Assembly: GCA_025355465.1 (NCBI GenBank) | Contig: JANXZO010000046.1 | Location: 666 to 64,665, forward strand | Length of the DNA stretch: 64,000 nt | Reading direction: 5' to 3' | From: Bacteroidales bacterium | GTDB taxonomy: Bacteria; Bacteroidota; Bacteroidia; Bacteroidales; FEN-979 | Part shown: positions 2,663 to 53,683 of the stretch, in pieces | Layout: each line of letters starts with the position of its first letter | How positions within the stretch are numbered: position 1 is the first letter of the stretch | The notes under the pieces: model-generated | Seen by the model: the letters and a program-made list of their open reading frames with translations, nothing else | Told to the model about the DNA's origin: nothing | Database searches by the model: none | Position numbers and translations under genes: made by a program

Positions 2663-2693
2663 ATTTCGCCTTGGCATATTTTGTCCAAAGTTA
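2656..2693 (-). promoter_or_regulatory. Bacteroidota -7 box with adjacent putative operator repeats
   Basis: Minus-strand TAACTTTG (2693-2686). On the plus strand, TTGACATATTT (2656-2666) and TTGGCATATTT (2671-2681) form a direct repeat, and TTGGCA-TATTT-TGTCCAA is an imperfect palindrome. Confidence 0.5.
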
Positions 2694-2794
2694 AAAAATA
2701 TTTTTTTACGGGTCAATTTGTATCAACTTTTTTTCGCAAAAGGTGGCTGTGTTGTAAATTTTTTAAATTTGTATAATAAACCAAACAAAAAAAC

Positions 2795-3523: not shown

Positions 3524-3551
3524 GAATCGACACCCAGATAATTTACTCCCC

Positions 3552-3941
3552 ATGAAAAAATTCAAGAAGATCCTCTGGATCATGGTCGTAGGCTTCCTGG
3601 TTATTCTGGCCATTTTCATTTACTGGAAGTTTTACTTTACTTACAGTGAAGGGTCGAGGGCCGGGCTTTTGCAGAAGTTCTCCTACAAAGGGAATGTCAT
3701 TAAAACCTACGAAGGCGAGCTGATCATGAGCAGTATCGAAAGCACGAAAAGCGCGACGATCGCCTCAGAAAAATTCTATTTTTCGGTAGCTGAAAAGACT
3801 ATTGCCGATCAGCTGATGCAGCTTGAAGGAGTTTATGTGATTCTGCAGTACAAAGAGAAACACGGTATTCTCTTCTGGCGGGGAGAGACCCGGTATATTG
3901 TCGACGGAATTTCCACGCGCGACTCAGGACCGGCCAAGTAG
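3552..3941 (+). CDS. Conserved small single-pass membrane protein of unknown function
   Basis: N-terminal TM helix followed by YSEGSRAGLLQKFSYKG..KTYEGEL, a motif I recognise from a Bacteroidota family often mislabelled as 6-phosphogluconate dehydrogenase. Confidence 0.7.
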   Translation: MKKFKKILWIMVVGFLVILAIFIYWKFYFTYSEGSRAGLLQKFSYKGNVIKTYEGELIMSSIESTKSATIASEKFYFSVAEKTIADQLMQLEGVYVILQYKEKHGILFWRGETRYIVDGISTRDSGPAK

Positions 3942-3986
3942 CAGCGGTTGCATGGGTCGAGGCCAATGACACGGAGCTGCCAATCT

Positions 3987-4461
3987 TTACTCCGGCAACC
4001 GTCCCTGCATCTGGCGGTCGACCATCCAGGCCGCGCAGGGTCTCTTCCAGCGGAGTAACAGGGTCTACGCCATGGATGTAGAGCAGGTCGGCGTATTCGA
4101 TCTCCAGCCGTTTGAGGCTCTCATCCACCGAGTCGAGGATGTGCATCCGCGATAATCCAACCTGGTTGGCGCCGCTTCCCATGCGTCCGCGCACCTTGGT
4201 GGCGATCACCACCTGCTGCCGGTGGATGCCCAGCTCCCGGAGCGCTTTTCCCAGCATGATCTCCGACAGGCCGTCGGAATAGACGTTGGCTGTATCGATA
4301 AAGTTGATGCCTTTCTCCAACGCAATCTTTACCAGGGAGGTGACCTCTTCCTGGGGTAGCTGACCGATGGCGGTCCAGAAGCCTTTTCCCCCGAAAGTCA
4401 TCGCTCCGAGGCAGAGTTCCGAAACCAGAACCCCCGTCGTTCCAAGCAGGTTGTATTTCAT
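3987..4461 (-). pseudogene. Aldo/keto reductase with an internal deletion and frameshift
   Basis: The first ~146 aa are a clear AKR (LCLGAMTFG, NFIDTANVYS, VIATKV, SLKRL, DLLYIH). At ~4028 the sequence jumps to an AKR-like C-terminus in another frame (WMVDRQMQGRLPE*, TAA 3989-3987). Confidence 0.8.
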
Positions 4462-7155: not shown

Positions 7156-8370
7156 ATGAAGAAGTTCATTTTACTTTCCGTTTTTATGATGGTCTCTGTT
7201 TCGCTTTTGGCGCAAACCATCGACCAGTGGCGCGGCCCCAAACGCGACGGCCTGTACAACGAAACCAACCTGCTGAAGCAGTGGCCTCCCGAAGGGCCGA
7301 AACTGCTCTGGAAAGCCGACAGCGTGGGTAACGGCTTTTCCTCGCCAATCATCACCGCCGAGCGGATCTACCTGCCGGGAGAGAAGGACAGCACGGGATA
7401 TATCTTTGCCTTCGACCGGAGCGGAAAGTTGCTCTGGAAGGCCGACATGGGCCCCGAGTGGACCGTCAACTTTCCGGGTCCCCGCTGCACACCTGCCGTG
7501 GTTGGCGACCTGCTGTACTACCTTTCCAGCATGGGGAAGCTTCACTGCCTGGATGCCAGGACCGGTGCCACAAAATGGAGTACCGACTATATCAAAGATC
7601 TTCACGGCGTGAACCTACGTTTCGGGTACACTGAATCGCCGCTGATTGAAGGTGACCGGATCTACTGCTCCCCGGGAGGCCCCGACACCAATGTGGTTGC
7701 CCTCAACCGGTTCGACGGCAAGCTGATCTGGAAGTCGAAGGCCATGGGTGATTCCTCCGCCTACTGCTCACCGGTACTTGTTCAGCTTCCCGGCCGCACG
7801 GTCTTTGTCAACCTGACCATTCATCATCTGATCGGGCTTGACGCGGCAACCGGTGAGCTGCTCTGGAGTTACAAAACGGAGCGCTGGCCCAACGACATCC
7901 ATTGCAATGTGCCGTTGTTTGAAAACGGCAATATCTATCTCAACGACCGGGGTGGCAACGGATTTGTGAAGCTGCAGCTGGCTGCCGACGGGAAGAGCGT
8001 GACCGAGACCTGGCGCAATTTCAAGGCCGGGAATATTCAGGGGGGCTTCATCAGGCTGGGCGATTACCTATACGGTTCACGCTACCGTCCCTCCCGTTTT
8101 GAGACGCTGTCGGCTGCCAGCGGAGAGGTTGTTGATTCGCTTAAATTCAGCCATGGCAGTACCATTTACGCCGACGGACTGCTTTACTGTTACTCCGAGC
8201 AGGGAGCGGTGGGGCTGATCAAACCCGACAACGGCAAGTCGGAACTGATCTCCTCCTTTAAAATTACCGAAGGAACCCTGGAACATTTTGCCCACCCGGT
8301 GATCCGCGATGGCGTTTTGTACATTCGCCACGGAAAGGTTTTGCTGGCTTATGACATCCGGCGGAGATAG
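7156..8370 (+). CDS. Secreted PQQ-binding-like beta-propeller protein 3
   Basis: Signal peptide, QWRGPKRDG and LDARTGATKW repeats. The C-terminal AHPVI..LYIRHG motif is shared with paralogues 1 and 2. Confidence 0.85.
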   Translation: MKKFILLSVFMMVSVSLLAQTIDQWRGPKRDGLYNETNLLKQWPPEGPKLLWKADSVGNGFSSPIITAERIYLPGEKDSTGYIFAFDRSGKLLWKADMGPEWTVNFPGPRCTPAVVGDLLYYLSSMGKLHCLDARTGATKWSTDYIKDLHGVNLRFGYTESPLIEGDRIYCSPGGPDTNVVALNRFDGKLIWKSKAMGDSSAYCSPVLVQLPGRTVFVNLTIHHLIGLDAATGELLWSYKTERWPNDIHCNVPLFENGNIYLNDRGGNGFVKLQLAADGKSVTETWRNFKAGNIQGGFIRLGDYLYGSRYRPSRFETLSAASGEVVDSLKFSHGSTIYADGLLYCYSEQGAVGLIKPDNGKSELISSFKITEGTLEHFAHPVIRDGVLYIRHGKVLLAYDIRRR

Positions 8371-8459
8371 AAGTACCCCCAAAGAACCAATTTTACCACA
8401 CATCATCAGAATGTTGATAAGAAATTAACCTTATTCAAGGTTGATACAACAAACTTTAT

Positions 8460-8480
8460 TATTTTTGACACGATTGTCAA
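8460..8480 (+). promoter_or_regulatory. -7 promoter box overlapped by a perfect inverted repeat (putative autoregulatory operator)
   Basis: TATTTTTG (8460-8467) overlaps TTGACA-CGAT-TGTCAA (8465-8480), which ends 15 nt before the XRE start. Confidence 0.6.
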
Positions 8481-8495
8481 GAAATACAATTCAAG

Positions 8496-8810
8496 ATGAA
8501 AACAGAAAATTTAGGTGATTATATTAGACAGCTACGAGAACAGGAAGAAATGCCACTACGCAAACTTGCTGCATTGCTCGATATTGACCAAAGCACACTA
8601 AGTAAATTGGAACGCGGAGCGCGACCAGTAAGCCGACAAATGTTACCAATCATTGCAAAGACTTTTAAAGTGGACGAAAAAGAACTTGTCATAAAGTTCA
8701 TGAGCAAACAAGTGGCTTATCAACTGGCAGACGAAAAATACGCTAAAGACATTTTGATTGCAGCAGAGGAAGAAATACAATACCTAACCAAAAAGAACGG
8801 TAGGAAGTAA
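8496..8810 (+). CDS. XRE-family HTH regulator (R-M controller-like)
   Basis: LGDYIRQLRE..LRKLAALLDIDQSTLSKLERG; homologous to 2342-2662. Its stop overlaps the start of the Res gene. Confidence 0.85.
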   Translation: MKTENLGDYIRQLREQEEMPLRKLAALLDIDQSTLSKLERGARPVSRQMLPIIAKTFKVDEKELVIKFMSKQVAYQLADEKYAKDILIAAEEEIQYLTKKNGRK

Positions 8811-10174
8811 TGGAGTTACAATTAGAAAATTTAAAATATCAGGACACCGCTATTCAGGCAGTCATTAAGGTGTTTGACGGAACAGAGAAAAACACTTTTG
8901 ACAATGCTTGCACTGAGGGTATACGTTCAAATGTTTGTAAACTAATCGCTTCGCAGTTAGCCGACAATATTAAAGCTATTGCAAAAGAAAACGGCCTTGA
9001 CGAAGAAACGGCAAAGTATTCAGCCGATAACGATCTCTGCATTGAAATGGAAACGGGAACAGGTAAAACACTTGTTTACATAAAAACCATTTACGAGTTA
9101 TACAAACACTACGCTTTTACAAAATTCATCATACTTGTTCCGTCAATTGCAATTAGACAAGGAACTTTAGGCACTTTCAAAACATTTGAAAAGCAATTAG
9201 CTACTATTTACGGCTTTACAGTTTCGGCTTTTGACTATGACAGCAAGAAGCTGAACAAAGTAACCAATTTCATTGAAGAACAGTATCCGCGGGTTATGAT
9301 TATGACAACTGGTGCATTTTCTTCTGACGACAGAATTTTAAACCGAACCCAAAGAGAAGATTTGTTTAATAATTTGCCATACATTGACGCAATTGCAAAA
9401 GTGCGACCAATCATTTTTATGGACGAGCCACAGGAAGGAATGGACAGCGACAATATGGTGGAACGTTTAAAAACGCTGTCAGCAGAGGAAAGAAAAGAAC
9501 GTTACAGTGAAAAAGCAGGCCAATCTGTTTGGGACTATAATAAAACAGAAGGAACAGACCATAAATTTATATTGATACAAATTCCTGAAGCTACGGACGA
9601 GAATAGTGAAGCTTATAAAGCGGGTTACAAAAAGATCAGCGACATCACCATTGAACGAAATAAACGAGTGGTTGGAAAACTCATTGAAGAAAAGAAAAAG
9701 CAACAACCAGACCTGTTTACCAACGGACACAAAGCCGATGCAATAAATGGTTTAGGCTTTAAAGTTTTCAAATTGGTAAAATCAAATTTCCCAAGAGTTG
9801 AATGGGCTCCCGATATTGAGAAAACAGACGAAGAAAATATTGCAACCCTGAAAAAATACATTGCCGACAAAGAAGCCCAATTGGTTACAGCATTCAACCG
9901 AAACGAATTGCTGACAGAGATTTTATTAAAAAGCGGTTTTCAACTAAACTACAAGGCCGACAAACAAGACCAGTTTACAAAAAACGAAATTTTATTAGCG
10001 ACAGACGGATTAAAAGAAACCTTAATTTGTTTAGATGTAGCAATTGATGCCGACACAGTAGAGCATTTCAAAAAGCACACAGACAAAAAATTCATTTGCC
10101 TTGAACGAGCCTTGGATACTACAAAGAAATACAACCTGAAGCACTATTTAGGTGATAAGTTTAATGTGTTTTAG
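8810..10174 (+). pseudogene. In-frame chimera of a type III R-M Res N-terminus and a Mod C-terminus (deletion remnant)
   Basis: aa 1-~223 carry Res helicase motifs (IEMETGTGKT, IILVPSIAIRQG, MDEPQ). From ~aa 236 the protein reads as a Mod tail (KFILIQIPE..YKAGYKKISDITIER..GFKVFKL). The later helicase motifs, the nuclease domain, DPPY and FAGSG are absent. Noticeably AT-rich relative to the flanks. Confidence 0.8.
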
Positions 10175-37773: not shown

Positions 37774-38919
37774 TTACTGATAAAAACGCCCCACCAACGC
37801 TTCATATTCCCCCTCGCCGAATTTCAGGGCAGCGCCGTTCACCTTATTAGAAACCATTCCATCGATGATTGCCTGCGGGCTGGTGGCGGATATGTTCATT
37901 CCGGAAAGGCGGACAGGACAGCCGATTGAAAGGAAGAAATTTTCGATCCGGTCGATCGACTGGTCTGCAGTGAGCGGGGTGTCGAAGAGACGTGTCCCCA
38001 GTTCGGCAATACGCCCCGGTATTTGCGCTTTGAAGTGGCGCATCCACGCAGGGTAGACAATGGTAAGCGAAGCGCCGTGCGGAACATCGTAAAGCAGCGA
38101 AAGGATATGGCCGGCACTGTGAACGCCCCAGTCGCCGGAACTTCTGCCGTACATGGTGGTGCCGTTGAGCGCCATGGTGGCGGCAAACATGATCCTGGCA
38201 CGGAGATCGTAATTGGTGAGGTCGTTGAGCAGGAGGGGCCCGAACTCCATGGCCTCCTTTACGATGGAGATCACAAACCGGTCGCTCAGCGAGGCTTCGC
38301 CGTTGCCGAACCAGGCTTCGAAACAGTGCGCGATCAGGTCGGCAATTCCGTATGCGGTGTAATCACGGGGCACAGAAATGGTAAGCCGGGGATCGAGGAA
38401 GGAGTGCTTCGGAAAAGTGAGGGGCGAACCAAAGGCCGCTTTTTGTCCCAGGGCATGGTTTGAAACGACTGCAAACGGGTTCATCTCCGATCCGGTGGCA
38501 GCCAGCGTAAGCACCGCCACCAGCGGAACAGCTTTCACCGCCCTGGCCTTGCCGGAGAAGAAATCCCAACCGGTGTGGGTCACGGGTATGGTAACCGAGA
38601 TGATCTTGGCGGAATCGATAACGCTTCCTCCCCCAACGGCAAGGATCATATCGACCTGGTTTTTCCGGCCAACCTCCGCAGCCCCGTCAACATCTTCGAT
38701 AACGGGGTTGGATTTGATACCGCCATACTCGAATACTTCCAATCCGTCTTGCTCAAGATATCCCTTCACCTGGTCGTAAAGCCCGCTGCTTTTAACAGAA
38801 CCTTTGCCGTAAACCAACAGAACTTTGCTGCCGTACTCTTTCAAAATCAGGCCAAGGTTGGCCAGAACATCTTTCCCGAAATGTAGGGTTGTCGGGTTAT
38901 ATATTGTGAAATTTTCCAT
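37774..38919 (-). CDS. Iron-containing alcohol dehydrogenase (BdhA/YqhD-like)
   Basis: NPTTLHFG, AVGGGSVIDSAK, ATGSEMN, and metal ligands in DLIAH, HSAGH and PHGASL. Confidence 0.92.
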   Translation of the reverse strand: MENFTIYNPTTLHFGKDVLANLGLILKEYGSKVLLVYGKGSVKSSGLYDQVKGYLEQDGLEVFEYGGIKSNPVIEDVDGAAEVGRKNQVDMILAVGGGSVIDSAKIISVTIPVTHTGWDFFSGKARAVKAVPLVAVLTLAATGSEMNPFAVVSNHALGQKAAFGSPLTFPKHSFLDPRLTISVPRDYTAYGIADLIAHCFEAWFGNGEASLSDRFVISIVKEAMEFGPLLLNDLTNYDLRARIMFAATMALNGTTMYGRSSGDWGVHSAGHILSLLYDVPHGASLTIVYPAWMRHFKAQIPGRIAELGTRLFDTPLTADQSIDRIENFFLSIGCPVRLSGMNISATSPQAIIDGMVSNKVNGAALKFGEGEYEALVGRFYQ

Positions 38920-38981: not shown

Positions 38982-39419
38982 TTATTTTGCTTTTGAACAG
39001 TAGTAGGTTCCCGAAGTATAGTCACTCGGGTTGGTCGGACTGTAGGATTTAAACGTTCCGGTGAGCGTCATATTGCCTGTGTTAAAAGTTCCCTCGATGA
39101 AGGATTGACCGTAAATACCCGTTCCCAGTATATATTTGAAATAGCGGTTGCTCACAGGGGTGATTCCGGAAGTGCTATAGGCCTGGATCGTTTGCTGACC
39201 ACCCGTATCAAACAGGATGATGAACTTGAGGCTCGTCAGGTAAAGGGTTCCTCCGATGTTATCGACATAAAAGTTGATCACCTGCGACTGGGAAGTTGAT
39301 CCGGGCCAGGAACCGATGAGCTCCGGATTATCGGGTTGGGGAGTGGATTTTTTGCAGGCCGGGGATGCCATGAGCAGGAAAATAAAAAGCAGGAAAACGG
39401 ATTTCGTAACGTATTTCAT
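38982..39419 (-). CDS. Hypothetical lipoprotein
   Basis: Signal peptide ending SPAC-KK. TATCTTTG box at 39447-39440. Confidence 0.7.
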   Translation of the reverse strand: MKYVTKSVFLLFIFLLMASPACKKSTPQPDNPELIGSWPGSTSQSQVINFYVDNIGGTLYLTSLKFIILFDTGGQQTIQAYSTSGITPVSNRYFKYILGTGIYGQSFIEGTFNTGNMTLTGTFKSYSPTNPSDYTSGTYYCSKAK

Positions 39420-39531
39420 AACTGTGGTTTGAAGTTGATCAAAGATAGGGATTATACCCTTTCCGGCTACGGTCGCCTCATTTTTTTTCTTAATTTTGCC
39501 GGCTGTTTGATTTCAAAAGAAAGAACCTCCC

Positions 39532-40728
39532 ATGTACGGAAAATTTCAGCAATATCTGCAGAAGCAGATAGAAGGCATTCATAACGACGGATTGTATAAA
39601 ACGGAACGCGTCATCACCACTCCCCAGGGGGTTGAAATACAGACCAACGGCCGGAAAGTACTTAATATGTGTGCCAACAACTACCTCGGACTCTCGAACG
39701 ACCCAAGGACGATGGCCGGAGCCAATATGACTTTTTTCAGGTATGGTTACGGGATGTCGTCGGTGAGGTTTATCTGCGGAACCCAGAAGATCCATAAAGA
39801 TCTCGAAGCCAAGCTCAGCGAATTTTTGGGGATGGAAGATACCATTTTGTACTCCTCGGCTTTCGACGCCAACGGAGGAGTGTTCGAACCGCTGCTGGGA
39901 GAGCAGGACGCGGTCATCAGCGACGAGCTGAACCATGCTTCCATCATCGACGGTGTAAGGCTTTGCAAAGCCCAGCGGTTCAAATACAAGAACAACGACA
40001 TGGACGACCTGGAGGAGGTGTTGCAGGATGCTGGTGAAGCCCGCTTCAAGCTCATCGTCACCGATGGAGTTTTCTCCATGGACGGTATTATTGCCCAGGT
40101 CGACAAGATCTGTGATCTGGCCGAAAAGTACAATGCACTGGTAATGGTCGATGATTCGCATGCCACAGGATTTGTTGGAAAGACAGGCCGCGGAACGGTT
40201 GAACACTGCAATGCTCAAGGCCGGGTGGATATCATCTCCACAACCTTCGGTAAAGCGCTTGGTGGCGCTTCCGGTGGGTCTGTTTCAGCCAAAAAAGAGA
40301 TTGTAGAGATCCTTCGTCAGCGCTCAAGGCCCTATCTTTTTTCAAATACTCTTGCTCCGGCCATTGCAGGCGCCACCCTGGAAGTGCTGAAGATGCTGAG
40401 CGAAACCACTTCGCTGCGTGACAAACTGTTCGAGAATACCCAACTGTTTCGCAAAGGCATGCAGGATGCGGGATTCAGGATCGTTGACGGGATACATCCC
40501 ATTGTCCCTGTCCTGTTCGGGCATCTTCCCAATGATGCGAAACTTTCCCAGGAATTTGCCAATGCACTTCTTGAGGAAGGAGTGTATGTCATTGGATTTT
40601 ATTACCCCGTCGTGCCCAAAGGCAAATCCAGGATCAGGGTTCAGATCAGTGCGGCCCATTCCCTGGAACAGATCGGTTTTGCGCTCGACAAGTTCAGGAA
40701 AGTAGGCAAGATGGTTAGGGCGATATAA
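39532..40728 (+). CDS. kbl: Glycine C-acetyltransferase (2-amino-3-ketobutyrate CoA ligase), copy 1
   Basis: [41 protein letters not shown] (PLP Lys), RSRPYLFSN. Confidence 0.92.
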
Positions 40729-40947: not shown

Positions 40948-40955
40948 TAATTTTG
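40948..40955 (+). promoter_or_regulatory. Bacteroidota -7 promoter box for the acpS operon
   Basis: TAATTTTG matches TAnnTTTG and lies 40 nt upstream of the acpS ATG. Confidence 0.55.
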
Positions 40956-40995: not shown

Positions 40996-41376
40996 ATGAT
41001 CTACGGAACCGGAGTTGATATCATCGAATGTGCCCGCATTCAGAAAGTGATGGAACGGGACCTTGGGTTTAAGGACAAGATATTTACACCCGGGGAGATA
41101 GAATACTGCGAATCGAAAAATCGCAATAAATACCAGCATTATGCGGCAAGGTTTTCGGCCAAAGAAGCTTTTATGAAGGCCATCGGTACCGGATGGAGAT
41201 TCGGGATCCGGTTTGGCGATATCGAGGTTATCCATGATGACCTCGGAAAGCCCCATATTCGCCTTCACGGAAAAGCAAAAGAATTGGCAGAAAACGAGGG
41301 GTTCTGGAAAATTCATGTATCTTTATCGCATGTTAAAGAATTAACAACTGCGATCGTGATTATAGAGCGTGAATAA
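40996..41376 (+). CDS. acpS: Holo-ACP synthase (4'-phosphopantetheinyl transferase)
   Basis: GTGVDIIE, ARFSAKEAFMKA, GKP, VSLSH. Confidence 0.95.
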   Translation: MIYGTGVDIIECARIQKVMERDLGFKDKIFTPGEIEYCESKNRNKYQHYAARFSAKEAFMKAIGTGWRFGIRFGDIEVIHDDLGKPHIRLHGKAKELAENEGFWKIHVSLSHVKELTTAIVIIERE

Positions 41377-41404
41377 CGTATAACCTAAAAACCCCTTAAA
41401 ACTC

Positions 41405-43108
41405 ATGTCAAACATCGGATCCTACGACGAAAGGATTAAAAATTTCGATTGGAGTATTGCTGAAAAGGAACTTGATTACCAGCCAGGTAAAGTAATTAAC
41501 ATCGGCTGGTACTGTACCGACCGAATCTGCAAGCTCGGAAAAGCTGATAAAACGGCCCTCATCTGGGAGGGCTCTGCCGGCAACGAAAAACGCTACACAT
41601 ACAACGACATCCGCTTGGCTTCCAACACCATCGGCCAGTTCCTCCGCGACCTCGGCATCAACCCCGAAGACCGCGTATGCCTTTTCATGGATAAGATCCC
41701 CGAACTCTACCTGAGCTTCCTCGGAGTGCTCAAGATCGGCGCCATTGTTCAGCCACTCTTTTCCGCCTTCGGCGATGAGTCATTGCACGTCCGGCTCGAC
41801 AACGCCCAGACTACGGCCATCATCACCCAGCGTAAGCACGCTCCCAAGGTGCGCAAGATCCTCGACAAAATGCCTTATCTCAAGCACATCATCATCGTGG
41901 ATCCGGATCCTGCCAAACCGCTCAACGACCGTGAAGTGGCTTTTGAACTCGAAAAAATGCCGAAAGTTGACCAGTTCGAGATCCACCCCACACTGGCCGA
42001 ATCGCCGTCGGTCTTGCATTATACTTCCGGAACAACCGGTCAGCCCAAAGGTGTGAAACACGTTCACTATTCGCTGATTTCGCAGTACCTCACCTCAAAG
42101 TGGGTCCTCGACCTGCTCGATACCGACATTTACTGGTGCACCGCCGACCCGGGCTGGGTTACAGGAACCTCATACGGTATCATCGGAGCCTTCAGCAACG
42201 GGGTTACGCAGTGCGTACTCGACGCCGGCTTCTCAGCCGACAACTGGTATAAGTTCATCGGGAAACACAAGATCAGCATGTGGTATTCGGCCCCGACAGC
42301 CATCCGCTCGCTGATGAAAGCCGGCGAAGAGGTGATCAAAAAGTATGACCTCTCCTCCCTGCGCCACCTGGCTTCTGTGGGCGAGCCGCTCAACTCTGAG
42401 GCCGTTATCTGGAGCGAACGGGTATTCGGGAAACCATTCCTTGACACCTACTGGCAAACCGAAACCGGCTCGATGATGATCACCAACTTCCCCGGCATGA
42501 AGATCAAACCGGGCTCCATGGGCAAACCGTTCCCGGGCATCACAGCCACGGTGATCCATCCCGAAACCTACGAACCTTTTACCGAGACCGGAAAGATCGG
42601 CCTCATCGCCATCAAACCCGGCTGGCCCTCCATGATGCGCACTTACTGGCGTAATGAAGAGACCTACAATAAAAAATTCCAGAATGGCTGGTATCTTCCG
42701 GGCGACCGCTCCTCCATCGACAACGAAGGCTATTTCTGGTTCGTCGGGCGCGACGATGATGTGATCAACACCGGCGGTCACCTGGTCAGTCCGTTCGAGG
42801 TAGAATCCGCACTGCTCGAACATCCTGCCGTAGCCGAATCAGCCGTTGTCGCCAAACCCGACTTCGTAAACATGGAGGTGGTGAAGGCCTTTGTTACGCT
42901 GAAACCCGGATTTGTGGCCAGCAAGGACCTCGACCTCGACATCATGAACTTCGTACGCAAAAAACTTTCACCGCTCGCCATGCCGCAGGAGATCGAATTC
43001 ATCGACAATCTCCCCAAAACACGCAGCGGAAAGATCATGCGCCGTATCCTCCACGCCAAAGAGTGGGGAGAGGAGATCGGGGATACGAGCACACTTGAAA
43101 ATGATTAA
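41405..43108 (+). CDS. acsA: AMP-forming acetate/short-chain acyl ligase (AcsA-like)
   Basis: YTSGTTGQPKG, WCTADPGWVTG, SVGEPLN, DTYWQTETG, GRDDDVI, LPKTRSGKIMRR. Confidence 0.88.
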   Translation: MSNIGSYDERIKNFDWSIAEKELDYQPGKVINIGWYCTDRICKLGKADKTALIWEGSAGNEKRYTYNDIRLASNTIGQFLRDLGINPEDRVCLFMDKIPELYLSFLGVLKIGAIVQPLFSAFGDESLHVRLDNAQTTAIITQRKHAPKVRKILDKMPYLKHIIIVDPDPAKPLNDREVAFELEKMPKVDQFEIHPTLAESPSVLHYTSGTTGQPKGVKHVHYSLISQYLTSKWVLDLLDTDIYWCTADPGWVTGTSYGIIGAFSNGVTQCVLDAGFSADNWYKFIGKHKISMWYSAPTAIRSLMKAGEEVIKKYDLSSLRHLASVGEPLNSEAVIWSERVFGKPFLDTYWQTETGSMMITNFPGMKIKPGSMGKPFPGITATVIHPETYEPFTETGKIGLIAIKPGWPSMMRTYWRNEETYNKKFQNGWYLPGDRSSIDNEGYFWFVGRDDDVINTGGHLVSPFEVESALLEHPAVAESAVVAKPDFVNMEVVKAFVTLKPGFVASKDLDLDIMNFVRKKLSPLAMPQEIEFIDNLPKTRSGKIMRRILHAKEWGEEIGDTSTLEND

Positions 43109-43118
43109 TAACCGGATT

Positions 43119-43146
43119 GTAAAGATGCACCGCAGTGCGTCTCCGT
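43119..43146. repeat. Solitary REP-like palindrome
   Basis: GTAAAGATGCAC-CGCA-GTGCGTCTCCGT; resembles GTAGAGACGCAC..GTGCGTCTCTAC hairpins linked to Y1/RAYT transposases. Confidence 0.55.
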
Positions 43147-43183
43147 AAAATATTACTAACCAAAAAATAAGGAGAACAAACCA

Positions 43184-43426
43184 ATGGACGAAATGAAAGA
43201 AGTTGTAAAAGCTTATGTGATCAAGGAGTATGTTGAAGATGATACCGAACTTACCTACGACACCCCGCTGATCTCGGGAGGTATTGTCGACAGCTTCTCG
43301 ATGGTCTCCCTGAAACGGTTTCTCGAGAACAAATACAACATCTCGATCCCCGACGACAAAGCAACTCCGGAAGCTTTTGATTCGGTGAATAAGATTTGTG
43401 TGCTCGTCAATGAATATTTAAAATAG
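43184..43426 (+). CDS. Stand-alone acyl carrier protein
   Basis: 80 aa, acidic, with GIVDSFSMVSL (phosphopantetheine Ser). Confidence 0.92.
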   Translation: MDEMKEVVKAYVIKEYVEDDTELTYDTPLISGGIVDSFSMVSLKRFLENKYNISIPDDKATPEAFDSVNKICVLVNEYLK

Positions 43427-43435
43427 GAGGTTTAC

Positions 43436-44683
43436 ATGGCTTATACCGACAAAACCCGCGGGATGTATGGCGATGTTCTCACCGGCCTTAAAGATGCCGG
43501 ACTGTATAAACAGGAACGCTACATCCACTCTGCCCAGGCTGCCGACATCGAAGTTGAATTCCCCGCCGGCGCCTCCCTGAAGAAAGTGATCAATATTTGC
43601 GCGAACAACTACCTGGGCCTGTCGAGCCATCCCGAAGTGGTGAAGGCTGCCCATGCCGGACTCGATTCCCACGGCTATGGCATGTCATCCGTACGCTTCA
43701 TCTGCGGAACACAGGACATTCACAGGACGCTCGAAGGAATGGTCACCAAATTCCTCGGAACCGAAGATACCATCCTCTTCCCTTCCTGTATGGATGCCAA
43801 TGCCGGCGTTTTTGAGGCCGTCCTCACCAAGGACGATGTCATGATCTCCGACCGTCTGGTGCATGCTTCGATCATCGACGGGATCCGTCTTTGCAGCGCC
43901 ATGCATGATACTTTCAAGCACTCCGACATGGAACATCTGGAGGAGAAACTGCAGCTGCACAACGACAAGCGCCTGAAGTGCGTCATTACCGATGGCGTAT
44001 TCTCAATGGATGGCGACACCGCCAAACTGGATAAGATGGTAGAATTGTGCGAAAAGTATGATGCACTCCTTTTTGTCGACGAGTCGCATTCCAGCGGCTT
44101 CATCGGCAAAACCGGCCGCGGAACGCATGAGCAGTACGGCGTTATGGGCAAGATCGACATCATCACCACCACTTTTGGTAAAGGTCTCGGAGGAGCTTCC
44201 GGCGGTTGCGTTTCCGGACGCAGGGAGCTGGTTGAGATGTGCCGCCAGAAGGCCCGTCCCTATCTCTTTTCCAATACCATCGCCCCGCCGGTTGTTGCCG
44301 GGGTCATCAAAGTGCTGGAGATCCTTTCTGCATCCACCGACCGTCGCGATAAGCTGGAAAAGAACACTGCGTTCTGGCGCCAGGGCTTGACTGAAGCGGG
44401 TCTGATCATTAAGGCAGGCGACACCCCCATTGTGCCGGTGATGCTGTTCAACGCCAAGCTGGCGCAGGATGTATCGCGCGACTTGTACGAAGAGGGTATC
44501 TATGCCATCGGCTTCTTCTTCCCGGTAGTACCCCAGGGAGCTGCCCGCATCCGCACCCAGATCTCCGCAGGCCACGAGATCCACCATCTCGAAAAAGCGC
44601 TCGAAGCCTTCCGGAAAGTAGGAAAGAAATATGATATCCTGGGAAAAACAAAGCAGGAGATAATCGAGCGATATGGAATGTAA
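43436..44683 (+). CDS. kbl: Glycine C-acetyltransferase-like alpha-oxoamine synthase, copy 2 (ACP-linked)
   Basis: [56 protein letters not shown] precedes the start. Confidence 0.88.
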   Translation: MAYTDKTRGMYGDVLTGLKDAGLYKQERYIHSAQAADIEVEFPAGASLKKVINICANNYLGLSSHPEVVKAAHAGLDSHGYGMSSVRFICGTQDIHRTLEGMVTKFLGTEDTILFPSCMDANAGVFEAVLTKDDVMISDRLVHASIIDGIRLCSAMHDTFKHSDMEHLEEKLQLHNDKRLKCVITDGVFSMDGDTAKLDKMVELCEKYDALLFVDESHSSGFIGKTGRGTHEQYGVMGKIDIITTTFGKGLGGASGGCVSGRRELVEMCRQKARPYLFSNTIAPPVVAGVIKVLEILSASTDRRDKLEKNTAFWRQGLTEAGLIIKAGDTPIVPVMLFNAKLAQDVSRDLYEEGIYAIGFFFPVVPQGAARIRTQISAGHEIHHLEKALEAFRKVGKKYDILGKTKQEIIERYGM

Positions 44684-45230
44684 ACTGGCCAACCCCGCCC
44701 CCCTGGGCCTTATGGGCTTCGGGATGACGACTGTTCTGCTGAACATTCACAATGCCGGATTTTTCCCTGTAAGCGCCATGGTGCTGGCCATGGGTATCTT
44801 CTATGGAGGCATCGCACAGGTGATCGCCGGCATTCTGGAATTCAAAAAGGGCAACACTTTCGGATTGACCGCCTTTACCTCCTACGGCATGTTCTGGCTT
44901 ACACTCGTTGCCCTCTGGCTGCTGCCGGAGATCAGCAATGGCAAAGGGGTGAAAACCGACGAAGCCTACATGGGCTGGTATCTTTTCATGTGGGGAGTTT
45001 TCACGCTTTTCATGTGGATCGGAACCTTCGGGAAAAGTTTTTGCCTCCAGTTCGTCTTTCTCTCCCTCTGGATCTTGTTCTTCCTGCTGGCTATCCGCGA
45101 CTGGAGTGGTTCGGCACTGATCGGCACCATCGCCGGCTACGAAGGGCTCATCTGCGGGCTCTCGGCTATCTATTTAGCGATGGCAGAGGTTCTGGAAGAG
45201 GCCAGGGGCAAGAAGATATTGCCCTATTAA
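44673..45230 (+). CDS. satP: Acetate uptake transporter (SatP/YaaH, GPR1/FUN34 family)
   Basis: LANPAPLGLMGFGMTTVLLNIHNAG signature, GNTFG and SYGMFW; overlaps the kbl2 end by 11 nt. Confidence 0.95.
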   Translation: MECKLANPAPLGLMGFGMTTVLLNIHNAGFFPVSAMVLAMGIFYGGIAQVIAGILEFKKGNTFGLTAFTSYGMFWLTLVALWLLPEISNGKGVKTDEAYMGWYLFMWGVFTLFMWIGTFGKSFCLQFVFLSLWILFFLLAIRDWSGSALIGTIAGYEGLICGLSAIYLAMAEVLEEARGKKILPY

Positions 45231-45318
45231 CGGGTAACTGCACCGGAAAAACGACTAAACAAACCATTTGGTCTAAATAGTTTTTCTCTGTTTCGGAGAT
45301 TATCTATTTTTATTGCCG

Positions 45319-47841
45319 ATGAGAACCCGGAATGTCTGCCCTCCCATAGTCCTGCACCGGATCTGGGTATTTATCGTAATCGCCGGCTTTTTTCTGACTT
45401 CCGAAGTGCGGTCGCAGGAAACCAACAGGGTTCTTGATTCCGCGGCGCGAAGTACAAAAAACATAGCGGCTGTTCGCGTCCTCACCGGGCCAAAAATCGA
45501 TGGTCGCCCCGATGACGCTATCTGGAAGAACATTCCGGCCACCGGGGATTTTGTGGAATATGCTCCCAGGAACGGATCACTTCCGGCACTCCCGACCAGG
45601 ATCCGGTTCGCCTACGACGACAATGCCCTCTATATTCTGGCCGTGATGTACGATCCGCGCCCCGACAGTATCTGCAAAGAGCTGGGCCGCCGCGATCAGA
45701 TCGAACGGCTGAATACCGACTACATTTCATTCGACATCCTGCCTTACAACGACGGGTTGAACATGTACGAGTTCAAGGTGAGCCCGGCGAACCTGCAGAA
45801 TGATTGCAAATATTCTGCCATCGGACAGGATATTACCTGGGATGCGGTTTGGGAAAGCGCGACCCTTATCACCGACAGCGCCTGGATTGCGGAGGTTAAA
45901 ATTCCGTACTCTGCGTTGCGGTTTCCTAAGGTCGAAAACCAGGTGTGGGGAATCAATATGTGGAGGAATATAAACCGGTATCATGAATTTTCCACCTGGT
46001 CGTGGGTCGACAATAAATCGCAGGATATATTCCGCTATTATGGAACGGTCTCCGGAATCAACAACGTGAAACCACCGGTCAGACTCTCCTTCTCCCCTTA
46101 TATTTCGGGGTATGTAGAGAAAAATCCCGACAGCAAGAACTGGTCCTGGTTCCTGCGTGGCGGACTCGATCTCCGCTATGGTATCAACGAAAGTTATACC
46201 CTCGACATGATGTTGATCCCCGACTTCGGCCAGGTGCAGTCGGACGACAAGGTGCTCAATCTTACTCCGTTTGAAATACGGTACGACGAGAAGCGGCAGT
46301 TCTTTACAGAGGCAACCGAATTATTCAACAAATGTGAGATTTTCTATACGCGGCGGGTCGGGAGCACACCGAAAAATTTCAACGCAGGATACGACAGTCT
46401 GAAACCCGGTGAAAAGGTAACCAGCAACCCCGATCAGACAAGGATCATCAATGCCACGAAAATTTCGGGACGGAACGCAAAGGGGCTGGGTATCGGTTTT
46501 TTTAACGGGATGACAACCAACACATGGGCCACGCTTACCGATACGGTGAAAGGTGAATCCAGAAGGGTGATGACCCAGCCGTTTACAAATTATAACGTCC
46601 TTGTATTCGATCAGAACCTGAAGAATAACTCCTATGTAACGCTGATCAACACCAATTACTGGACCCCGGAGGAAGGATACTCAGCCAATGTTACAGGGAT
46701 GGAAACCATGATCAAAAACAAAAAGGCTACTTTCCAGGTATTTGGTCGGGTGAATGTAAGTCAGCTGTATAGCCGGGCAATCAGCCCGCAGTTCGGACAT
46801 CAGTATGTCGTTGCCCTGGAAAAGCCAAGCGGCAAATTTCAGTGTCAGCTCTTCCGGCAGGAAACCGGTGATACCTACGACCCGAACGACATGGGTTTTC
46901 TTCCATACAACAATGAAACTTTTAACCGGCTGAGGCTATCCTGGTATGATTTTGATCCGAAGGGAAAGATCATCAATACGCAGACCGACTTTCAGACAAT
47001 CTATTCGACGCTCTATAAGCCCTACGACTTCAAAACACTGGATTTCAGCCTGCACAATCAGATCACCTTCGTGAAATACTGGACAAACTCTCTCTATGCC
47101 GCCTTTCAGCCGCTGGGTTATAATGATTACTACGAACCCAGGGTTTGGGGAAGGGTTTATAAGCGGCCGTTAAACTATTCGGGCGAATGGAGTTTCTCCT
47201 CCGATGGAAGAAAGCCATTCAGGTACATGCATAATTTCGGGATTGGAATAAGCCCTGCCAACAATAACATCGAATATTTTATCGGGTTTACTCCGCGTAT
47301 CAGATTTAGCGACCGGCTATCTGTCAGCCTTAACGTACAATACGAAAAGGAGCTCAACGCTTACGGCTGGGTTACCCAGGACGATAATTTGCCATTCGAA
47401 CCGACCATCTATTTCGGCAGACGCGATGTTAACACCATTAACAACATCCTTACGGCAAGTTATATTTTCAGCACAAAAGCCTCACTTTCGCTGCGGGCCC
47501 GGCACTACTGGTCGCAGGCAAATTATCTCTCATTCTATACACTGGAATGGGAGGGAACTCTCGCTCCGGCTCCCTTCATTCAGAATCAGAACATAATCTT
47601 CAATGCATTCACCGCCGATCTCCAGTTTATCTGGTATTTTGCACCGGGCAGCGAGATGAGTGTCGTATGGAAAAACATCATCAATACCTGGGGCGATCAG
47701 CTGGTTCACAATTACCTGACCGACCTCAGCAACACGCTCGCGGCGCCGCAATTGAACAGTTTTTCGGTGAGGATACTTTATTACCTTGATTACCTGAACC
47801 TTCGCAAGGTTTTTACCAAAAAACAAGAGAAGCAAAGCTAA
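45319..47841 (+). CDS. Outer-membrane protein with CBM9-like N-domain and DUF5916 barrel
   Basis: PKIDG..W, AYDDNALYI, AEVKIPYSALRF, WGIN, PDFGQVQSDD, EKRQFFTE. Confidence 0.82.
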   Translation: MRTRNVCPPIVLHRIWVFIVIAGFFLTSEVRSQETNRVLDSAARSTKNIAAVRVLTGPKIDGRPDDAIWKNIPATGDFVEYAPRNGSLPALPTRIRFAYDDNALYILAVMYDPRPDSICKELGRRDQIERLNTDYISFDILPYNDGLNMYEFKVSPANLQNDCKYSAIGQDITWDAVWESATLITDSAWIAEVKIPYSALRFPKVENQVWGINMWRNINRYHEFSTWSWVDNKSQDIFRYYGTVSGINNVKPPVRLSFSPYISGYVEKNPDSKNWSWFLRGGLDLRYGINESYTLDMMLIPDFGQVQSDDKVLNLTPFEIRYDEKRQFFTEATELFNKCEIFYTRRVGSTPKNFNAGYDSLKPGEKVTSNPDQTRIINATKISGRNAKGLGIGFFNGMTTNTWATLTDTVKGESRRVMTQPFTNYNVLVFDQNLKNNSYVTLINTNYWTPEEGYSANVTGMETMIKNKKATFQVFGRVNVSQLYSRAISPQFGHQYVVALEKPSGKFQCQLFRQETGDTYDPNDMGFLPYNNETFNRLRLSWYDFDPKGKIINTQTDFQTIYSTLYKPYDFKTLDFSLHNQITFVKYWTNSLYAAFQPLGYNDYYEPRVWGRVYKRPLNYSGEWSFSSDGRKPFRYMHNFGIGISPANNNIEYFIGFTPRIRFSDRLSVSLNVQYEKELNAYGWVTQDDNLPFEPTIYFGRRDVNTINNILTASYIFSTKASLSLRARHYWSQANYLSFYTLEWEGTLAPAPFIQNQNIIFNAFTADLQFIWYFAPGSEMSVVWKNIINTWGDQLVHNYLTDLSNTLAAPQLNSFSVRILYYLDYLNLRKVFTKKQEKQS

Positions 47842-50998: not shown

Positions 50999-53683
50999 AT
51001 GAACATCCACAAACTCAACAACATCTTCAATCCGCAACGCATCGCGCTGATCGGCGTTACCACCAATCCCAACAGCGTAAGCGGCAAAGTGCTCATCAAT
51101 CTTGTCGGCGGTGGCTTCAAAGGGGTAGTTTATCCGATCAATCCTGATCACGAGGCCGTGATGGGCATCCCGTGTTTTCCGGATTTGAAAAGTCTCCCTA
51201 AAATCCCTGACCTGGGAATTATCTGTTCACCTGCCGAAAAAGTTCTGAACACGGTGCGGGAGTGCGGGGCTTCGGGAATCCGTGGAGTGATCATTATCTC
51301 AGCCGGATTCCGGGAGACGGGAACAGCGGGAAAACAACTGGAGGATGAGATCAGGGCAGAGATCCGGAAATGGGAAGGGATGAGGGTGTTAGGGCCAAAC
51401 TGCCTGGGCATCATTGTTCCGGGGCTGAAGTTAAATGCCAGTTTCGCGGCAAGTATGCCCAAACCGGGAAACATTGCCTTTATTTCACAGTCGGGGGCCC
51501 TCTGTACTTCCGTTCTTGACTGGGCCATGGAAGGCAGGATCGGATTTTCTCAGTTCGTCTCCATCGGAAACAGCATCGATGTGGAATTTGGCGATCTCAT
51601 TGACTATTTCGGGGAGGATGAAAATACAAAATGTATCATACTTTATATCGAGTCAATACAAAACCCCCGAAAATTCATGACGGCGGCAAGGGCTTTTGCC
51701 CGCAAGAAGCCGATCATCGTTTACAAGGCAGGCAGGTTTCCTGAATCGGCCAAAGTCGCTGCCTCACACACCGGGGCCATGGCTTCGGAAGATGCCGTTT
51801 ATGATGCCGCATTTCAAAGGGTTGGACTGGCAAGGGTTTACGAGATCGGAGATATTTTCAGTGTTGCAGAATTGATCGGTCGAAACAAATTTCCAAAAGG
51901 ACCGAGGCTCGGAATCATCACCAATGCCGGTGGCCCCGGGGTGATGGCAACAGATGCCCTGATTGCATCGAACGGGGTGCTGGCAGAATTGTCGCCGGAA
52001 ACATTGGAAAAACTGAATGAGAACCTGCCAGCCTTCTGGTCTCACGGAAATCCGGTGGATGTTCTCGGTGATGCAAGGGCCAAACGTATTGCCAAAGCCA
52101 CTCAAATAGTGCTGGACGACCCATCGGTGGATGCCGTTCTCGTCATCCTGACCCCGCAGGCTATGACCAATCCCGACGCTACTGCCAGGGAGATCACCCT
52201 GCTCGTTTCTGCCACGCAAAAGCCCATCCTGGCTGCCTGGCTTGGCGGACAGAGCATGCATGCCGCCGACGACATACTCATCGAAAGCGGAATTCCTTCG
52301 TTTCGCACACCCGAACAGGCCATCCGTGCTTTCATGACACTGGTCGCCTATTCAAGAAACCTCGACACCCTCTACGAAACACCCAAAGACATTCCTGTCG
52401 AATTTTCGGTTGACCGGCTGCGCCTAAGGGAGGAATTTAAACGCACCATCCATGGGAAAGAACCCATCCTCTCCGAAAATGACTCCAAGTCAATCCTCGA
52501 ATCATATGGGATCAGCACCACCAAACCCGTTTTTGCATCGTCAGCAAAAGAGGCTATCGAAATGGCAGGAAAAATCGGCTACCCCGTTGTTCTGAAAATA
52601 CAGTCGCCCGATATCACTCATAAATCGGATGTGGGAGGCGTTCAGCTCAACCTGGGCACCGAAAACCAGGTGAATGCCGCCTTCGAACGCATCATGGAAG
52701 CAGCCCGTACCCGACGCCCCGATGCAAGAATCGAAGGAGTAACTGTTCAAAAAATGGCTTCGGTAAGGGATGGGGCTGAGCTGATCCTCGGCATTAAAAA
52801 GGACAGTGTTTTCGGTACGGTATTGATGGTGGGGATGGGGGGTATCAATGCAGAGTTATTTGGTGACAAGGCACTTGGATTTCCTCCGTTAAATGAACGT
52901 CTGGCCAGCCACATGCTGGAATCGCTTAAGATCTATCCGATCCTTAAAGGATACAGGGGTAACCCCGCCATGAATATTCCGCAACTGATCCAGGTTTTGA
53001 TCAGGTTGTCATACCTTGCGGCCGACTACCCCGAAATCGCTGAGCTGGATATCAACCCTTTGCTTGTAACTACCGGGGAAGTTATTGCACTGGATGCGCG
53101 CATCGTGGTCGAAGACTACCCCGGCCCGCATGAGAGTAAGAACTATGCTCATCTCGCCCTGCATCCGTATCCTGAAAAATATGTGAAACAGACCCTTCTT
53201 CAGGATGGGACAGAAGTGCTGCTGCGGCCGATCAAACCGGAGGATGAACCAAATTGGCTCGCAATGCTTGGAGCCTGCTCCAAAGAGTCACTTTACAGCA
53301 GGTTCCGTTACTTTTTTCACTGGCAATCGCACGAAGTCGCCACGCGTTTCTGTTACATTGATTACGATCGTGAACTGGCCATCGTGGCAGAAATAATTGT
53401 GAACGGGCAGAAGAATTTAATCGGTGTTGGCAGGCTTATCGCAGATCCTGATCACGAAACGGTGGAGTATGCCATTCTTGTCGTTGATGCATGGCAACAC
53501 AAGGATCTCGGAAACAGCATTACCGACTATTGTCTGGATATCGCCGCACAATGGAATCTGAAAAAAATCGTGGCACAAACCACTCCCGATAACAAACGGA
53601 TGATCTCGGTATTTCAGAAAAGAGGATTTGATGTTCATATCAATACTCATGATTCAACCGTGGATGTGATAAAGATCCTATAA
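50999..53683 (+). CDS. NDP-forming acyl-CoA synthetase-like protein with a C-terminal GNAT domain (Pat-type lysine acetyltransferase)
   Basis: FNPQRIALIG, GPNCLG, SQSGA, ASHTGAM, ITHKSDVGGV, LDINPL, then LRPIKPEDE..IDYDRELA GNAT. Confidence 0.92.
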   Translation: MNIHKLNNIFNPQRIALIGVTTNPNSVSGKVLINLVGGGFKGVVYPINPDHEAVMGIPCFPDLKSLPKIPDLGIICSPAEKVLNTVRECGASGIRGVIIISAGFRETGTAGKQLEDEIRAEIRKWEGMRVLGPNCLGIIVPGLKLNASFAASMPKPGNIAFISQSGALCTSVLDWAMEGRIGFSQFVSIGNSIDVEFGDLIDYFGEDENTKCIILYIESIQNPRKFMTAARAFARKKPIIVYKAGRFPESAKVAASHTGAMASEDAVYDAAFQRVGLARVYEIGDIFSVAELIGRNKFPKGPRLGIITNAGGPGVMATDALIASNGVLAELSPETLEKLNENLPAFWSHGNPVDVLGDARAKRIAKATQIVLDDPSVDAVLVILTPQAMTNPDATAREITLLVSATQKPILAAWLGGQSMHAADDILIESGIPSFRTPEQAIRAFMTLVAYSRNLDTLYETPKDIPVEFSVDRLRLREEFKRTIHGKEPILSENDSKSILESYGISTTKPVFASSAKEAIEMAGKIGYPVVLKIQSPDITHKSDVGGVQLNLGTENQVNAAFERIMEAARTRRPDARIEGVTVQKMASVRDGAELILGIKKDSVFGTVLMVGMGGINAELFGDKALGFPPLNERLASHMLESLKIYPILKGYRGNPAMNIPQLIQVLIRLSYLAADYPEIAELDINPLLVTTGEVIALDARIVVEDYPGPHESKNYAHLALHPYPEKYVKQTLLQDGTEVLLRPIKPEDEPNWLAMLGACSKESLYSRFRYFFHWQSHEVATRFCYIDYDRELAIVAEIIVNGQKNLIGVGRLIADPDHETVEYAILVVDAWQHKDLGNSITDYCLDIAAQWNLKKIVAQTTPDNKRMISVFQKRGFDVHINTHDSTVDVIKIL

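Follow-up and report, generated by a model that had tools for sequence, protein, structure and literature searches.

Kbl (glycine C-acetyltransferase) and acetyl-coenzyme A (CoA) synthetase (Acs) are textbook CoA enzymes. The locus described here raises the question of why the genes of two such enzymes should stand on either side of a gene for a stand-alone carrier protein (CP). It occupies positions 40996-45230 of the window, which is the whole stretch of 64,000 nucleotides that was analysed, taken from the genome of a Bacteroidales bacterium. Five linked genes are read from the plus strand. They are acpS (40996-41376; 126 aa), coding for a holo-carrier-protein synthase, an AcpS-type phosphopantetheinyl transferase (PPTase); the gene of an AcsA-type adenylate-forming ligase, the proposed acetate:carrier-protein ligase (41405-43108; 567 aa); the CP gene (43184-43426; 80 aa), with Ser37 located within GIVDSFSM (...GIVDSFSMVSL...); kbl2 (43436-44683; 415 aa), coding for a CP-linked Kbl paralog, a pyridoxal 5'-phosphate (PLP)-dependent alpha-oxoamine synthase (AOS); and satP (44673-45230; 185 aa), coding for an acetate channel or transporter of the AceTr family, an optional accessory. 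The successive intergenic gaps are 28, 75, 9 and -11 nt, the last being the overlap of satP with kbl2. An earlier interpretation made from the letters of the window alone (the sequence-only reading) had described these five genes behind one -7 box with an 11-nt overlap at the satP end, and the list of open reading frames (ORFs) agreed with that description. It had overlooked kbl1 (39532-40728, plus strand), a canonical CoA-type glycine C-acetyltransferase gene immediately 5' of the cassette, and a gene for a Pat-type protein lysine acetyltransferase at 50999-53683.

The conserved unit consists of four genes, acpS-ligase-CP-kbl2, and satP, pat, tdh and kbl are optional companions. We assign a probability of about 0.45 to the reading that acetate is loaded on a dedicated CP and that Kbl2 interconverts acetyl-CP and glycine with 2-amino-3-oxobutanoate, a compound linked to threonine. 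The analysis itself establishes the gene identities, their order and co-occurrence, a Kbl2 clade with a signature of its own, the small-acyl pocket, the fusions, and tdh, kbl and pat as recurring neighbours. Within this tentative reading we infer the loading of CP with acetate, the use of acetyl-CP by Kbl2, glycine as the co-substrate, the direction of the reaction and its physiological role. A full-text literature search, with most subscription journals outside its scope, found no description of an acetyl-carrier-protein-dependent Kbl or of this gene cluster. If the reading is correct, a carrier-protein branch of central amino-acid metabolism would have been overlooked because each of its genes is automatically annotated as an ordinary housekeeping enzyme.

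Conservation of the cassette and its optional neighbours

A scan of one genome per species, covering 185,579 species, located relatives of CP at at least 586 stretches. The genome-locus counts given here refer to the best 80 of these, in which CP is 73-93% identical; the denominators are the loci with enough flanking sequence, and neighbours were identified by tblastn and simple ORF calling. The kbl2 gene was found directly downstream of CP in 70/70 loci, the ligase gene directly upstream of CP in 68/71, and acpS directly upstream of the ligase gene in 57/63. The best 80 loci of an independent metagenome scan (mean GC content, 0.60), selected with a query spanning the ligase-CP junction and often more divergent, with ligases 63-79% identical, had the ligase in 45/45, kbl2 in 44/44 and acpS in 27/40. 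The core order was thus kept across phyla when the conservation check suggested by the sequence-only reading was carried out, and the linkage of the four genes is far beyond chance because this order recurs in hundreds of genomes. The proposal of a five-gene unit stood for the core and failed for satP, which is adjacent to kbl2 in 24/65 genome loci.

The best 80 genome loci lie in records labelled Bacteroidales, Prolixibacteraceae, Rikenellaceae, Zixiibacteriota, Delongbacteria, Aminicenantes/Saccharicenans, Acidobacteria/Terriglobia, Ignavibacteriales, Bipolaricaulota and 'Eubacteriales'; labels among the closest are Bacteroidales, Prolixibacteraceae and Draconibacterium. Identity across phyla is 74-91% for the ligase, 73-93% for CP and 76-95% for Kbl2; AcpS proteins of cassette loci share 31-55%.

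Closer to the window, CP orthologs 76-93% identical are present in 23/24 genomes of the same family, and of 16 genomes belonging to other families of the same order one, G033, has an ortholog (74% identical). Even sampling of the whole order gave orthologs in 25/301 genomes, scattered through many families. Twenty regions were taken from relatives, 17 with a CP ortholog and 3 with 40%-identical paralogs. In the 17 same-family loci, the adjacent genes include kbl2 in 17/17, the ligase gene in 16/17 and acpS in 16/17; kbl1 lies close by in 12/17, and satP was found in 6/17; some of the best 80 loci come from the same genomes as these same-order relatives, and the two sets overlap. When the window genome (G000) and its 40 relatives were compared, a second Kbl scoring over the cut-off was found in 25/25 genomes with a CP ortholog and in 0/16 without one, a count among kin genomes that does not amount to a statistical test. 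Three loci (L051, L055 and L080) carry Alphaproteobacteria, Hyphomicrobiales or Proteobacteria labels, yet they have a Bacteroidota-like gene order and a ligase 79-91% identical; L051 duplicates the coordinates and identities of the Bacteroidales record L050. These three are probably mis-binned or mislabelled contigs of metagenome-assembled genomes.

Fusions were sought at the protein level among longer proteins containing CP and by a search of the junction region. The ligase and CP are joined in frame in P0012 (659 aa, 6 members on 5 contigs), P0007 (664 aa) and P0009 (a fragment), and AcpS is joined in frame to CP in P0014 (4 members), P0018 and P0019 (3 members). In the high-GC loci L140, L148, L154, L156 and L158 the stop codon of the ligase gene abuts an in-frame CP ATG. 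This arrangement suggests that translation of the two genes is tightly coupled, and the ligase-CP fusions probably arose by way of it. Several candidates were discarded. The apparent CP-Kbl fusions P0004, P0006, P0010, P0015 and P0025 have stretches that are deleted or garbled by frameshifts, and in P0026 a canonical Kbl carries an internal duplication. Readthrough or a cryptic ligase-CP fusion was also rejected; the two genes share a frame in 80/80 loci of the metagenome set, which is biased by its selection on the junction, and in 35/93 loci of an unbiased set, which is the chance level.

SatP scores 273 bits on the acetate uptake transporter model NF038013 (cut-off, 50). A second Kbl lies within the flanks of 45/80 genome loci and a threonine dehydrogenase (Tdh) of the short-chain dehydrogenase/reductase (SDR) type within those of 9/80. 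The latter gene is located directly 5' of acpS in loci from Ignavibacteriales and Zixibacteria; in one of them, L103, the 323-aa neighbour matches solved SDR-type L-threonine dehydrogenases with E values from 1e-128 to 1e-75. A Zn-type Tdh, unrelated to the SDR type, was found in three metagenome loci. In L176 it directly precedes the ligase gene (NF003808, 382 bits; cut-off, 380) and a canonical Kbl (610 bits) follows Kbl2, and L162 and L201 have members of its BLAST cluster. The association with tdh that the sequence-only reading had asked about is therefore seen with both types (SDR in 9/80 loci, Zn in 3 metagenome loci). In the family of the window tdh is mostly 7-54 kb off the cassette, on its contig, and in families without the cassette a single Kbl gene adjoins an SDR-type tdh.

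Acs is a known target of Pat, which inactivates it by acetylation of the A10-motif lysine. Homologs of Pat are present within the flanks of 22/80 loci (Bacteroidota, Zixibacteria and Aminicenantes), directly after kbl2 in one Zixibacteria locus and 0.6-6 kb away in Bacteroidota and Aminicenantes. They combine the Pfam domains CoA_binding, Succ_CoA_lig and ATP-grasp_5 (NDP-forming acyl-CoA-synthetase-like) with a GNAT domain. The Pat of the window (50999-53683, plus strand), a candidate regulator of the ligase recognised by its Pfam domains, is 79% identical to the homolog in L043. Clustering of the flanking ORFs gave no conserved neighbours beyond tdh, kbl, satP and pat. Two families of 452-aa (29 loci) and 559-aa (12 loci) ORFs, as well as the DUF5916, Fe-type alcohol dehydrogenase (Fe-ADH), MFS and thioredoxin-like neighbours, were set aside as lineage synteny only. 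Taken together, the companions of the cassette (Tdh of two analogous types, canonical Kbl, an acetate channel and a regulator of Acs) place it in the chemistry of acetate, glycine and threonine.

A connection to microcompartments was considered and rejected as not general; a bacterial microcompartment (BMC) gene stands ahead of the cluster in a single Ignavibacteriales locus, and a search of 4 other genomes revealed none. In that locus (L103:1381-4621) tdh-acpS-ligase-CP-kbl2 is directly preceded by genes for a sigma-54 activator containing TPR repeats and for a solitary BMC-domain protein. The BMC-domain protein has a long C-terminal tail and is encoded by the only BMC gene of its genome.

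Predicted properties of the four proteins

CP has no Pfam match at E≤1e-3, and its scores on carrier-protein models are all below threshold (NF052616, 64.8 bits versus 130; DltC, 27 bits). A profile built from 24 CP orthologs matches 28 solved carrier proteins, with a best E value of 7.7e-13 (PltL, PigG, DltC and acyl carrier proteins, ACPs), and residues D36 and S37, the Asp-Ser attachment motif, are invariant in the orthologs. Because its profile matches solved carrier proteins, CP can be assigned as a real carrier protein of the peptidyl carrier protein (PCP)/DltC-like kind. It is separate from the housekeeping AcpP, which is encoded on contig C18 of the window genome and scores 112.6 bits on the AcpP model, on which CP scores just 24.5 bits. 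The ACP of the ornithine-lipid system OlsHI was considered as an identity for CP and rejected: this best NCBIfam match is far under its cut-off, and OlsHI is, in the available portion of its description, a planctomycete GH3-type system. The 40%-identical CP paralogs mentioned above (L032:7058-8445 in G002, L033:235-1627 in G010, and L034 in G009) belong to a different system. They adjoin DltB-like MBOAT genes inside sugar-nucleotide clusters (TviB/LegB-like), have no ligase of their own, and could be part of a carrier-dependent system for polysaccharide O-acylation.

AcpS is matched by PF01648 (66.8 bits) and by the holo-ACP synthase model TIGR00516 (99 bits; cut-off, 59.8). The idea that it is a PPTase dedicated to the cassette was not borne out. 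The gene is the sole AcpS-type gene of the window genome and the sole PF01648 gene in 3/5 other genomes tested, so the housekeeping PPTase function falls to it in several genomes. The window genome also has one Sfp-type PPTase, on contig C34.

The ligase belongs to the AMP-binding family. It scores 749 bits on the acetate-CoA ligase model NF003313, 20 bits over the cut-off of 729, and is under the cut-off of TIGR02188 (508 versus 725 bits). Its closest solved relative is a 572-aa acetyl-CoA synthetase (9g79). Among 64 orthologs and fusions, V252, T253 and V325 are invariant (64/64) and W350 is present in 63. We take these to be the acetate-pocket positions studied in the Acs of Salmonella and Methanothermobacter, and their conservation suggests that the ligase keeps a small-acyl pocket of acetate size. 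The A10 motif lysine, K543, is invariant in 64/64. R130 and R518 are invariant across orthologs and align, by motif alignment to Acs structures other than Salmonella Acs 2p2f, with arginines that presumably contact the CoA phosphate in the Salmonella enzyme.

Kbl2 scores over the cut-offs of TIGR01822 (557 bits versus 493) and NF005394 (555 versus 460), as does Kbl1 (605 and 617 bits, respectively). It is far under the cut-offs of the serine palmitoyltransferase (SPT) models (310 versus 640, 275 versus 500 and 228 versus 670). The two window copies share 53% identity. K249 (the PLP lysine), H143, D215, H218 and R373 are invariant in 24/24 Kbl2 orthologs and align to solved Kbl; we assume for them the catalytic roles of the E. 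coli Kbl residues.

A tree of 63 rows was built from 36 CP-linked Kbl proteins and 12 canonical neighbours (both subsampled), all 11 other Kbl-like neighbours, both window copies and two outgroups from the window genome. The CP-linked proteins form one clade apart from Kbl1 (SH-aLRT 100, stem branch 0.35), so the phylogenetic check proposed in the sequence-only reading did reveal an ACP-linked Kbl clade. Branches within it are short and roughly track phyla. The frameshifted rows L096 and L112 have long branches in the tree and were excluded from the residue analysis, which compared 63 Kbl2, 31 Kbl1 and 7 Delongbacteria rows. The Delongbacteria rows represent the sister of the Kbl2 clade, a second Kbl located downstream in Delongbacteria loci. 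P116, C118, M119 and V142 set Kbl2 apart from Kbl1 and from this sister copy alike. V142 immediately precedes the PLP-stacking His143, where the canonical residue is Asn (LNHAS). R140 of Kbl2 is replaced by Glu in Kbl1 and is variable in the Delongbacteria copy, and a C-terminal extension of 14 residues (402-415) is missing from Kbl1 and shared with the Delongbacteria copy. A wider comparison drew 75 full-length representatives from the 150 closest clusters at 50% identity; Met119 was found in 0/75, and position 142 was Asn in 60 and Val in 3; V142 is invariant in the 24 aligned Kbl2 orthologs. R140 and V142 occurred together only in one sequence, a probably frameshifted fragment. Kbl2 thus lacks the conserved Asn before the PLP-stacking His, a conserved trait of the family and not a formal definition of Kbl. 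In the Delongbacteria-type loci L079, L084, L085, L087, L088, L094 and L108 there is no acpS beside the ligase gene, and the second Kbl, the sister of Kbl2, lies directly 3' of kbl2 and retains the canonical Asn and Phe. This copy may be an intermediate form of the Kbl paralog pair.

The window genome (3.54 Mb in 75 contigs, 98.8% complete) contains four AOS genes, an SDR-type threonine dehydrogenase gene on contig C6 and a ThrC-like gene (165.3 bits; cut-off, 167.1). A model scan of this genome detected no Zn-type Tdh at the cut-off. A missing threonine synthase was rejected as a rationale for the cassette because the ThrC-like gene is present. A separate long Acs is encoded on contig C61 (784 bits, two pieces summed, with one in-frame TAG), which makes the cassette ligase an extra paralog. 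The in-frame TAG of this gene (C61:142428-144143, loci L128/L129) may be due to an assembly error, to a frameshift or to the gene being a pseudogene; should the long Acs be broken, the cassette ligase would be the sole intact Acs-type enzyme of the genome.

Proposed reaction, precedents and alternatives

The reading that we prefer is the most economical one, and the use by Kbl2 of acetate carried on CP was already put forward in the sequence-only reading. It would begin with AcpS attaching 4'-phosphopantetheine to Ser37 of CP. The ligase would adenylate acetate and pass the acetyl moiety to the thiol of CP, in place of CoA or in preference to it. With PLP, Kbl2 would then interconvert acetyl-S-CP and glycine with 2-amino-3-oxobutanoate and holo-CP, and the 2-amino-3-oxobutanoate would be linked to threonine through threonine dehydrogenase or decay to aminoacetone. 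The favoured direction would be synthetic, from acetate and glycine to 2-amino-3-oxobutanoate and then threonine. The AMP-forming ligase would keep the private CP pool almost fully acetylated and thereby push the condensation, a reaction that the CoA-linked Kbl1 normally runs in reverse. SatP would serve for acetate entry and Pat for control of the ligase by acetylation, both being optional. The AcpS-CP fusions and the adjacency of acpS (57/63 loci) are suggestive of phosphopantetheinylation of CP, and the ligase-CP fusions speak indirectly for acylation of CP by the ligase. A private thioester pool, highly acetylated at the cost of ATP and pushing the Kbl condensation, is the likely benefit of such a cassette. 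The wider proposal that anaerobes of at least six phyla keep an ATP-charged acetyl-CP pool apart from acetyl-CoA, and that a specialised Kbl drives glycine and acetate in the direction of threonine, is a doubtful one.

Carrier-dependent alpha-oxoamine synthases are already known, and the cassette is unusual in being short-chain, Kbl-type, linked to primary metabolism and distributed over at least six phyla. Its closest characterised counterpart is the AasR/AcpR/SPT system of sphingolipid synthesis in Rhodobacteria. According to the available part of its description, a ligase unable to acylate CoA loads a dedicated ACP for a PLP-dependent AOS, and the ACP and acyl-CoA synthetase (ACS) genes co-occur with the AOS gene and are encoded next door (PMC9386255). 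The AOS gene of the cassette likewise co-occurs with carrier-protein and adenylate-forming ligase genes (70/70, 68/71, and 25/25 versus 0/16). The AasR/AcpR/SPT system, as far as that part of its description goes, uses long-chain fatty acids and serine to make a membrane-lipid precursor, whereas the cassette has an AcsA-type ligase with a predicted acetate-size pocket and a Kbl-type AOS, its neighbours are tdh, kbl, satP and pat, and its hosts are anaerobes of other phyla.

In threonine degradation by Tdh and Kbl (EC 1.1.1.103 / 2.3.1.29), the Kbl is like Kbl2 in family score and catalytic residues, and genes for canonical Kbl and for two structural types of Tdh are repeatedly found next to the cassette. 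That pathway uses free CoA and has no ligase, carrier protein or PPTase, and Kbl2 forms a separate clade (V142, M119, R140 and the C-terminal extension). A short-chain precedent is SxtA of saxitoxin synthesis, in which ACP and AONS domains condense a C2-C3 acyl-ACP with an amino acid. SxtA is a multidomain protein of secondary metabolism, resembling a polyketide synthase, that uses arginine and decarboxylates; the cassette proteins are free-standing, their AOS is of Kbl type, and they are found in many phyla. Charging of a small dedicated carrier by an ATP-dependent ligase, as proposed here, is also the mode of DltA and DltC, and CP is weakly similar to DltC. CitC, the acetate:SH-citrate-lyase ligase, acetylates a carrier thiol directly from acetate and ATP. 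Unlike the Dlt and citrate lyase systems, the cassette has no genes for DltB, DltD, a DltA-type amino-acid ligase or citrate lyase; its ligase is Acs-type and the acceptor is a PLP-dependent AOS. A paper on a 'specialized ACP' of D. vulgaris concerns biotin in its available part (PMC10102598).

Several points weigh against the carrier-dependent synthetic reaction. Since acpS has the housekeeping role in several genomes, its presence alone is no proof of dedication. By its model score the ligase looks like a bona fide acetate-CoA ligase, and with R130 and R518 kept it may still make acetyl-CoA. Kbl2 likewise passes the cut-off of a CoA-dependent Kbl model, and the nearest solved relatives of CP carry aminoacyl or peptidyl groups (PltL, PigG and DltC) and not acetyl groups. 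No gap in the pathway calls for such a route, since a ThrC-like gene, Kbl1 and an SDR-type Tdh are all present in the genome, and a synthetic Kbl2 beside a degradative Kbl1 would form a cycle merely making acetyl-CoA.

Some of these points lead to the alternative that no carrier-dependent condensation takes place, that the cassette encodes an ordinary acetyl-CoA synthetase and a CoA-dependent Kbl isozyme, and that CP and AcpS act as a regulatory partner or as an acetyl donor to acceptors such as DltB-type O-acyltransferases. The passing scores of the ligase and Kbl2 on curated CoA-dependent families, the retained arginines with their presumed CoA contacts, the housekeeping acpS and the 40%-identical CP paralogs beside DltB-like MBOAT genes without a ligase of their own are all compatible with it. 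We regard it as improbable nevertheless. CP and Kbl2 co-occur in 25/25 genomes versus 0/16, and their genes lie side by side in 70/70 and 44/44 loci. There are natural ligase-CP fusions, Kbl2 forms a clade apart that evolves slowly and has a signature of its own, and the cassette is without MBOAT genes; ordinary isozymes would also be redundant in a genome with a canonical Acs and a canonical Kbl. A different choice of substrates is unlikely, though a little less so. The ligase could load propionate, glycolate or lactate, or Kbl2 could take an amino acid other than glycine, or both, the product being a distinct small aminoketone that serves either as a precursor of a cofactor or as a signal of the kind of pyrazines or pyrazinones. 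The unique V142 beside the PLP-stacking His, the changes F119M, A118C and S116P near the active-site loop and the margin of merely 20 bits by which the ligase passes the acetate-CoA ligase cut-off would fit such chemistry, as would the fact that aminoacetone-derived pyrazinones are known signals, according to the available part of one report (PMC12930378). Four residues of the ligase pocket, however, agree with acetate-specific Acs in 63-64/64 orthologs, Kbl2 retains Arg373, which binds the carboxylate, together with all the catalytic residues of Kbl, and the neighbourhood of two unrelated Tdh types, canonical Kbl and SatP indicates acetate, glycine and threonine chemistry.

The same enzymes might also work in the catabolic direction. 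Threonine would be converted by Tdh to 2-amino-3-oxobutanoate and by Kbl2 to glycine and acetyl-S-CP, the ligase would run in reverse (acetyl-CP + AMP + pyrophosphate -> acetate + ATP + holo-CP) and so conserve the energy of the thioester, and SatP would export the acetate. Tdh and Kbl traditionally count as catabolic enzymes, the cluster begins with tdh in L103, L099 and L176, the hosts are by their record labels anaerobes of sediments and digesters, AceTr channels can work both ways, and an AMP-forming Acs reportedly operates in reverse in Syntrophus. Such ligases seldom reverse, however, and the clusters of flanking ORFs include no conserved thioesterase or transacylase that would regenerate holo-CP. 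Kbl1 and CoA already supply the catabolic route, and control by Pat and a transporter matched by an 'uptake'-type model suit acetate activation better. We consider the catabolic direction quite unlikely. If Kbl and Acs do have a CP-dependent form, kept at 75-95% identity from phylum to phylum, part of the acetate, glycine and threonine primary metabolism of sediment and digester anaerobes would use a private thioester pool, and the modelling of abundant uncultured groups (Aminicenantes, Zixibacteria, Prolixibacteraceae and others) would change. The logic of ligase, ACP and alpha-oxoamine synthase would extend from lipids to C2 units, and a CoA-independent module that forms C-C bonds would be available for biocatalysis. 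All components of the cassette are small soluble proteins, which makes the question directly testable in vitro.

Other features of the window

The -7 promoter box, of the Bacteroidetes type (TAnnTTTG), is a pattern match, TAATTTTG, at 40948-40955 on the plus strand, 40 nt 5' of the acpS start. From this box to the end of satP there is no further TAnnTTTG on the plus strand, and kbl1 is preceded by a copy of its own at 39491. The motif by itself is not significant, with 30 copies on the plus strand of the window. A consensus scan located a terminator-like hairpin 3' of satP (45285-45299, plus strand), in a region where the number of such sites is not above that in shuffles.

Three further genes flank the cassette in many Bacteroidota loci. 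They code for a YqhD-like Fe-ADH, below the cut-off (37774-38919, minus strand), a small lipoprotein-like ORF (38982-39419, minus strand) and a DUF5916/CBM9 protein (45313-47841, plus strand). They are absent beside the cassette in other phyla and represent lineage synteny, outside the system. At the beginning of the window, positions 1-4000 and 8001-10000 have a GC content of 0.33-0.43, compared with about 0.50-0.57 elsewhere, and may be islands or foreign segments.

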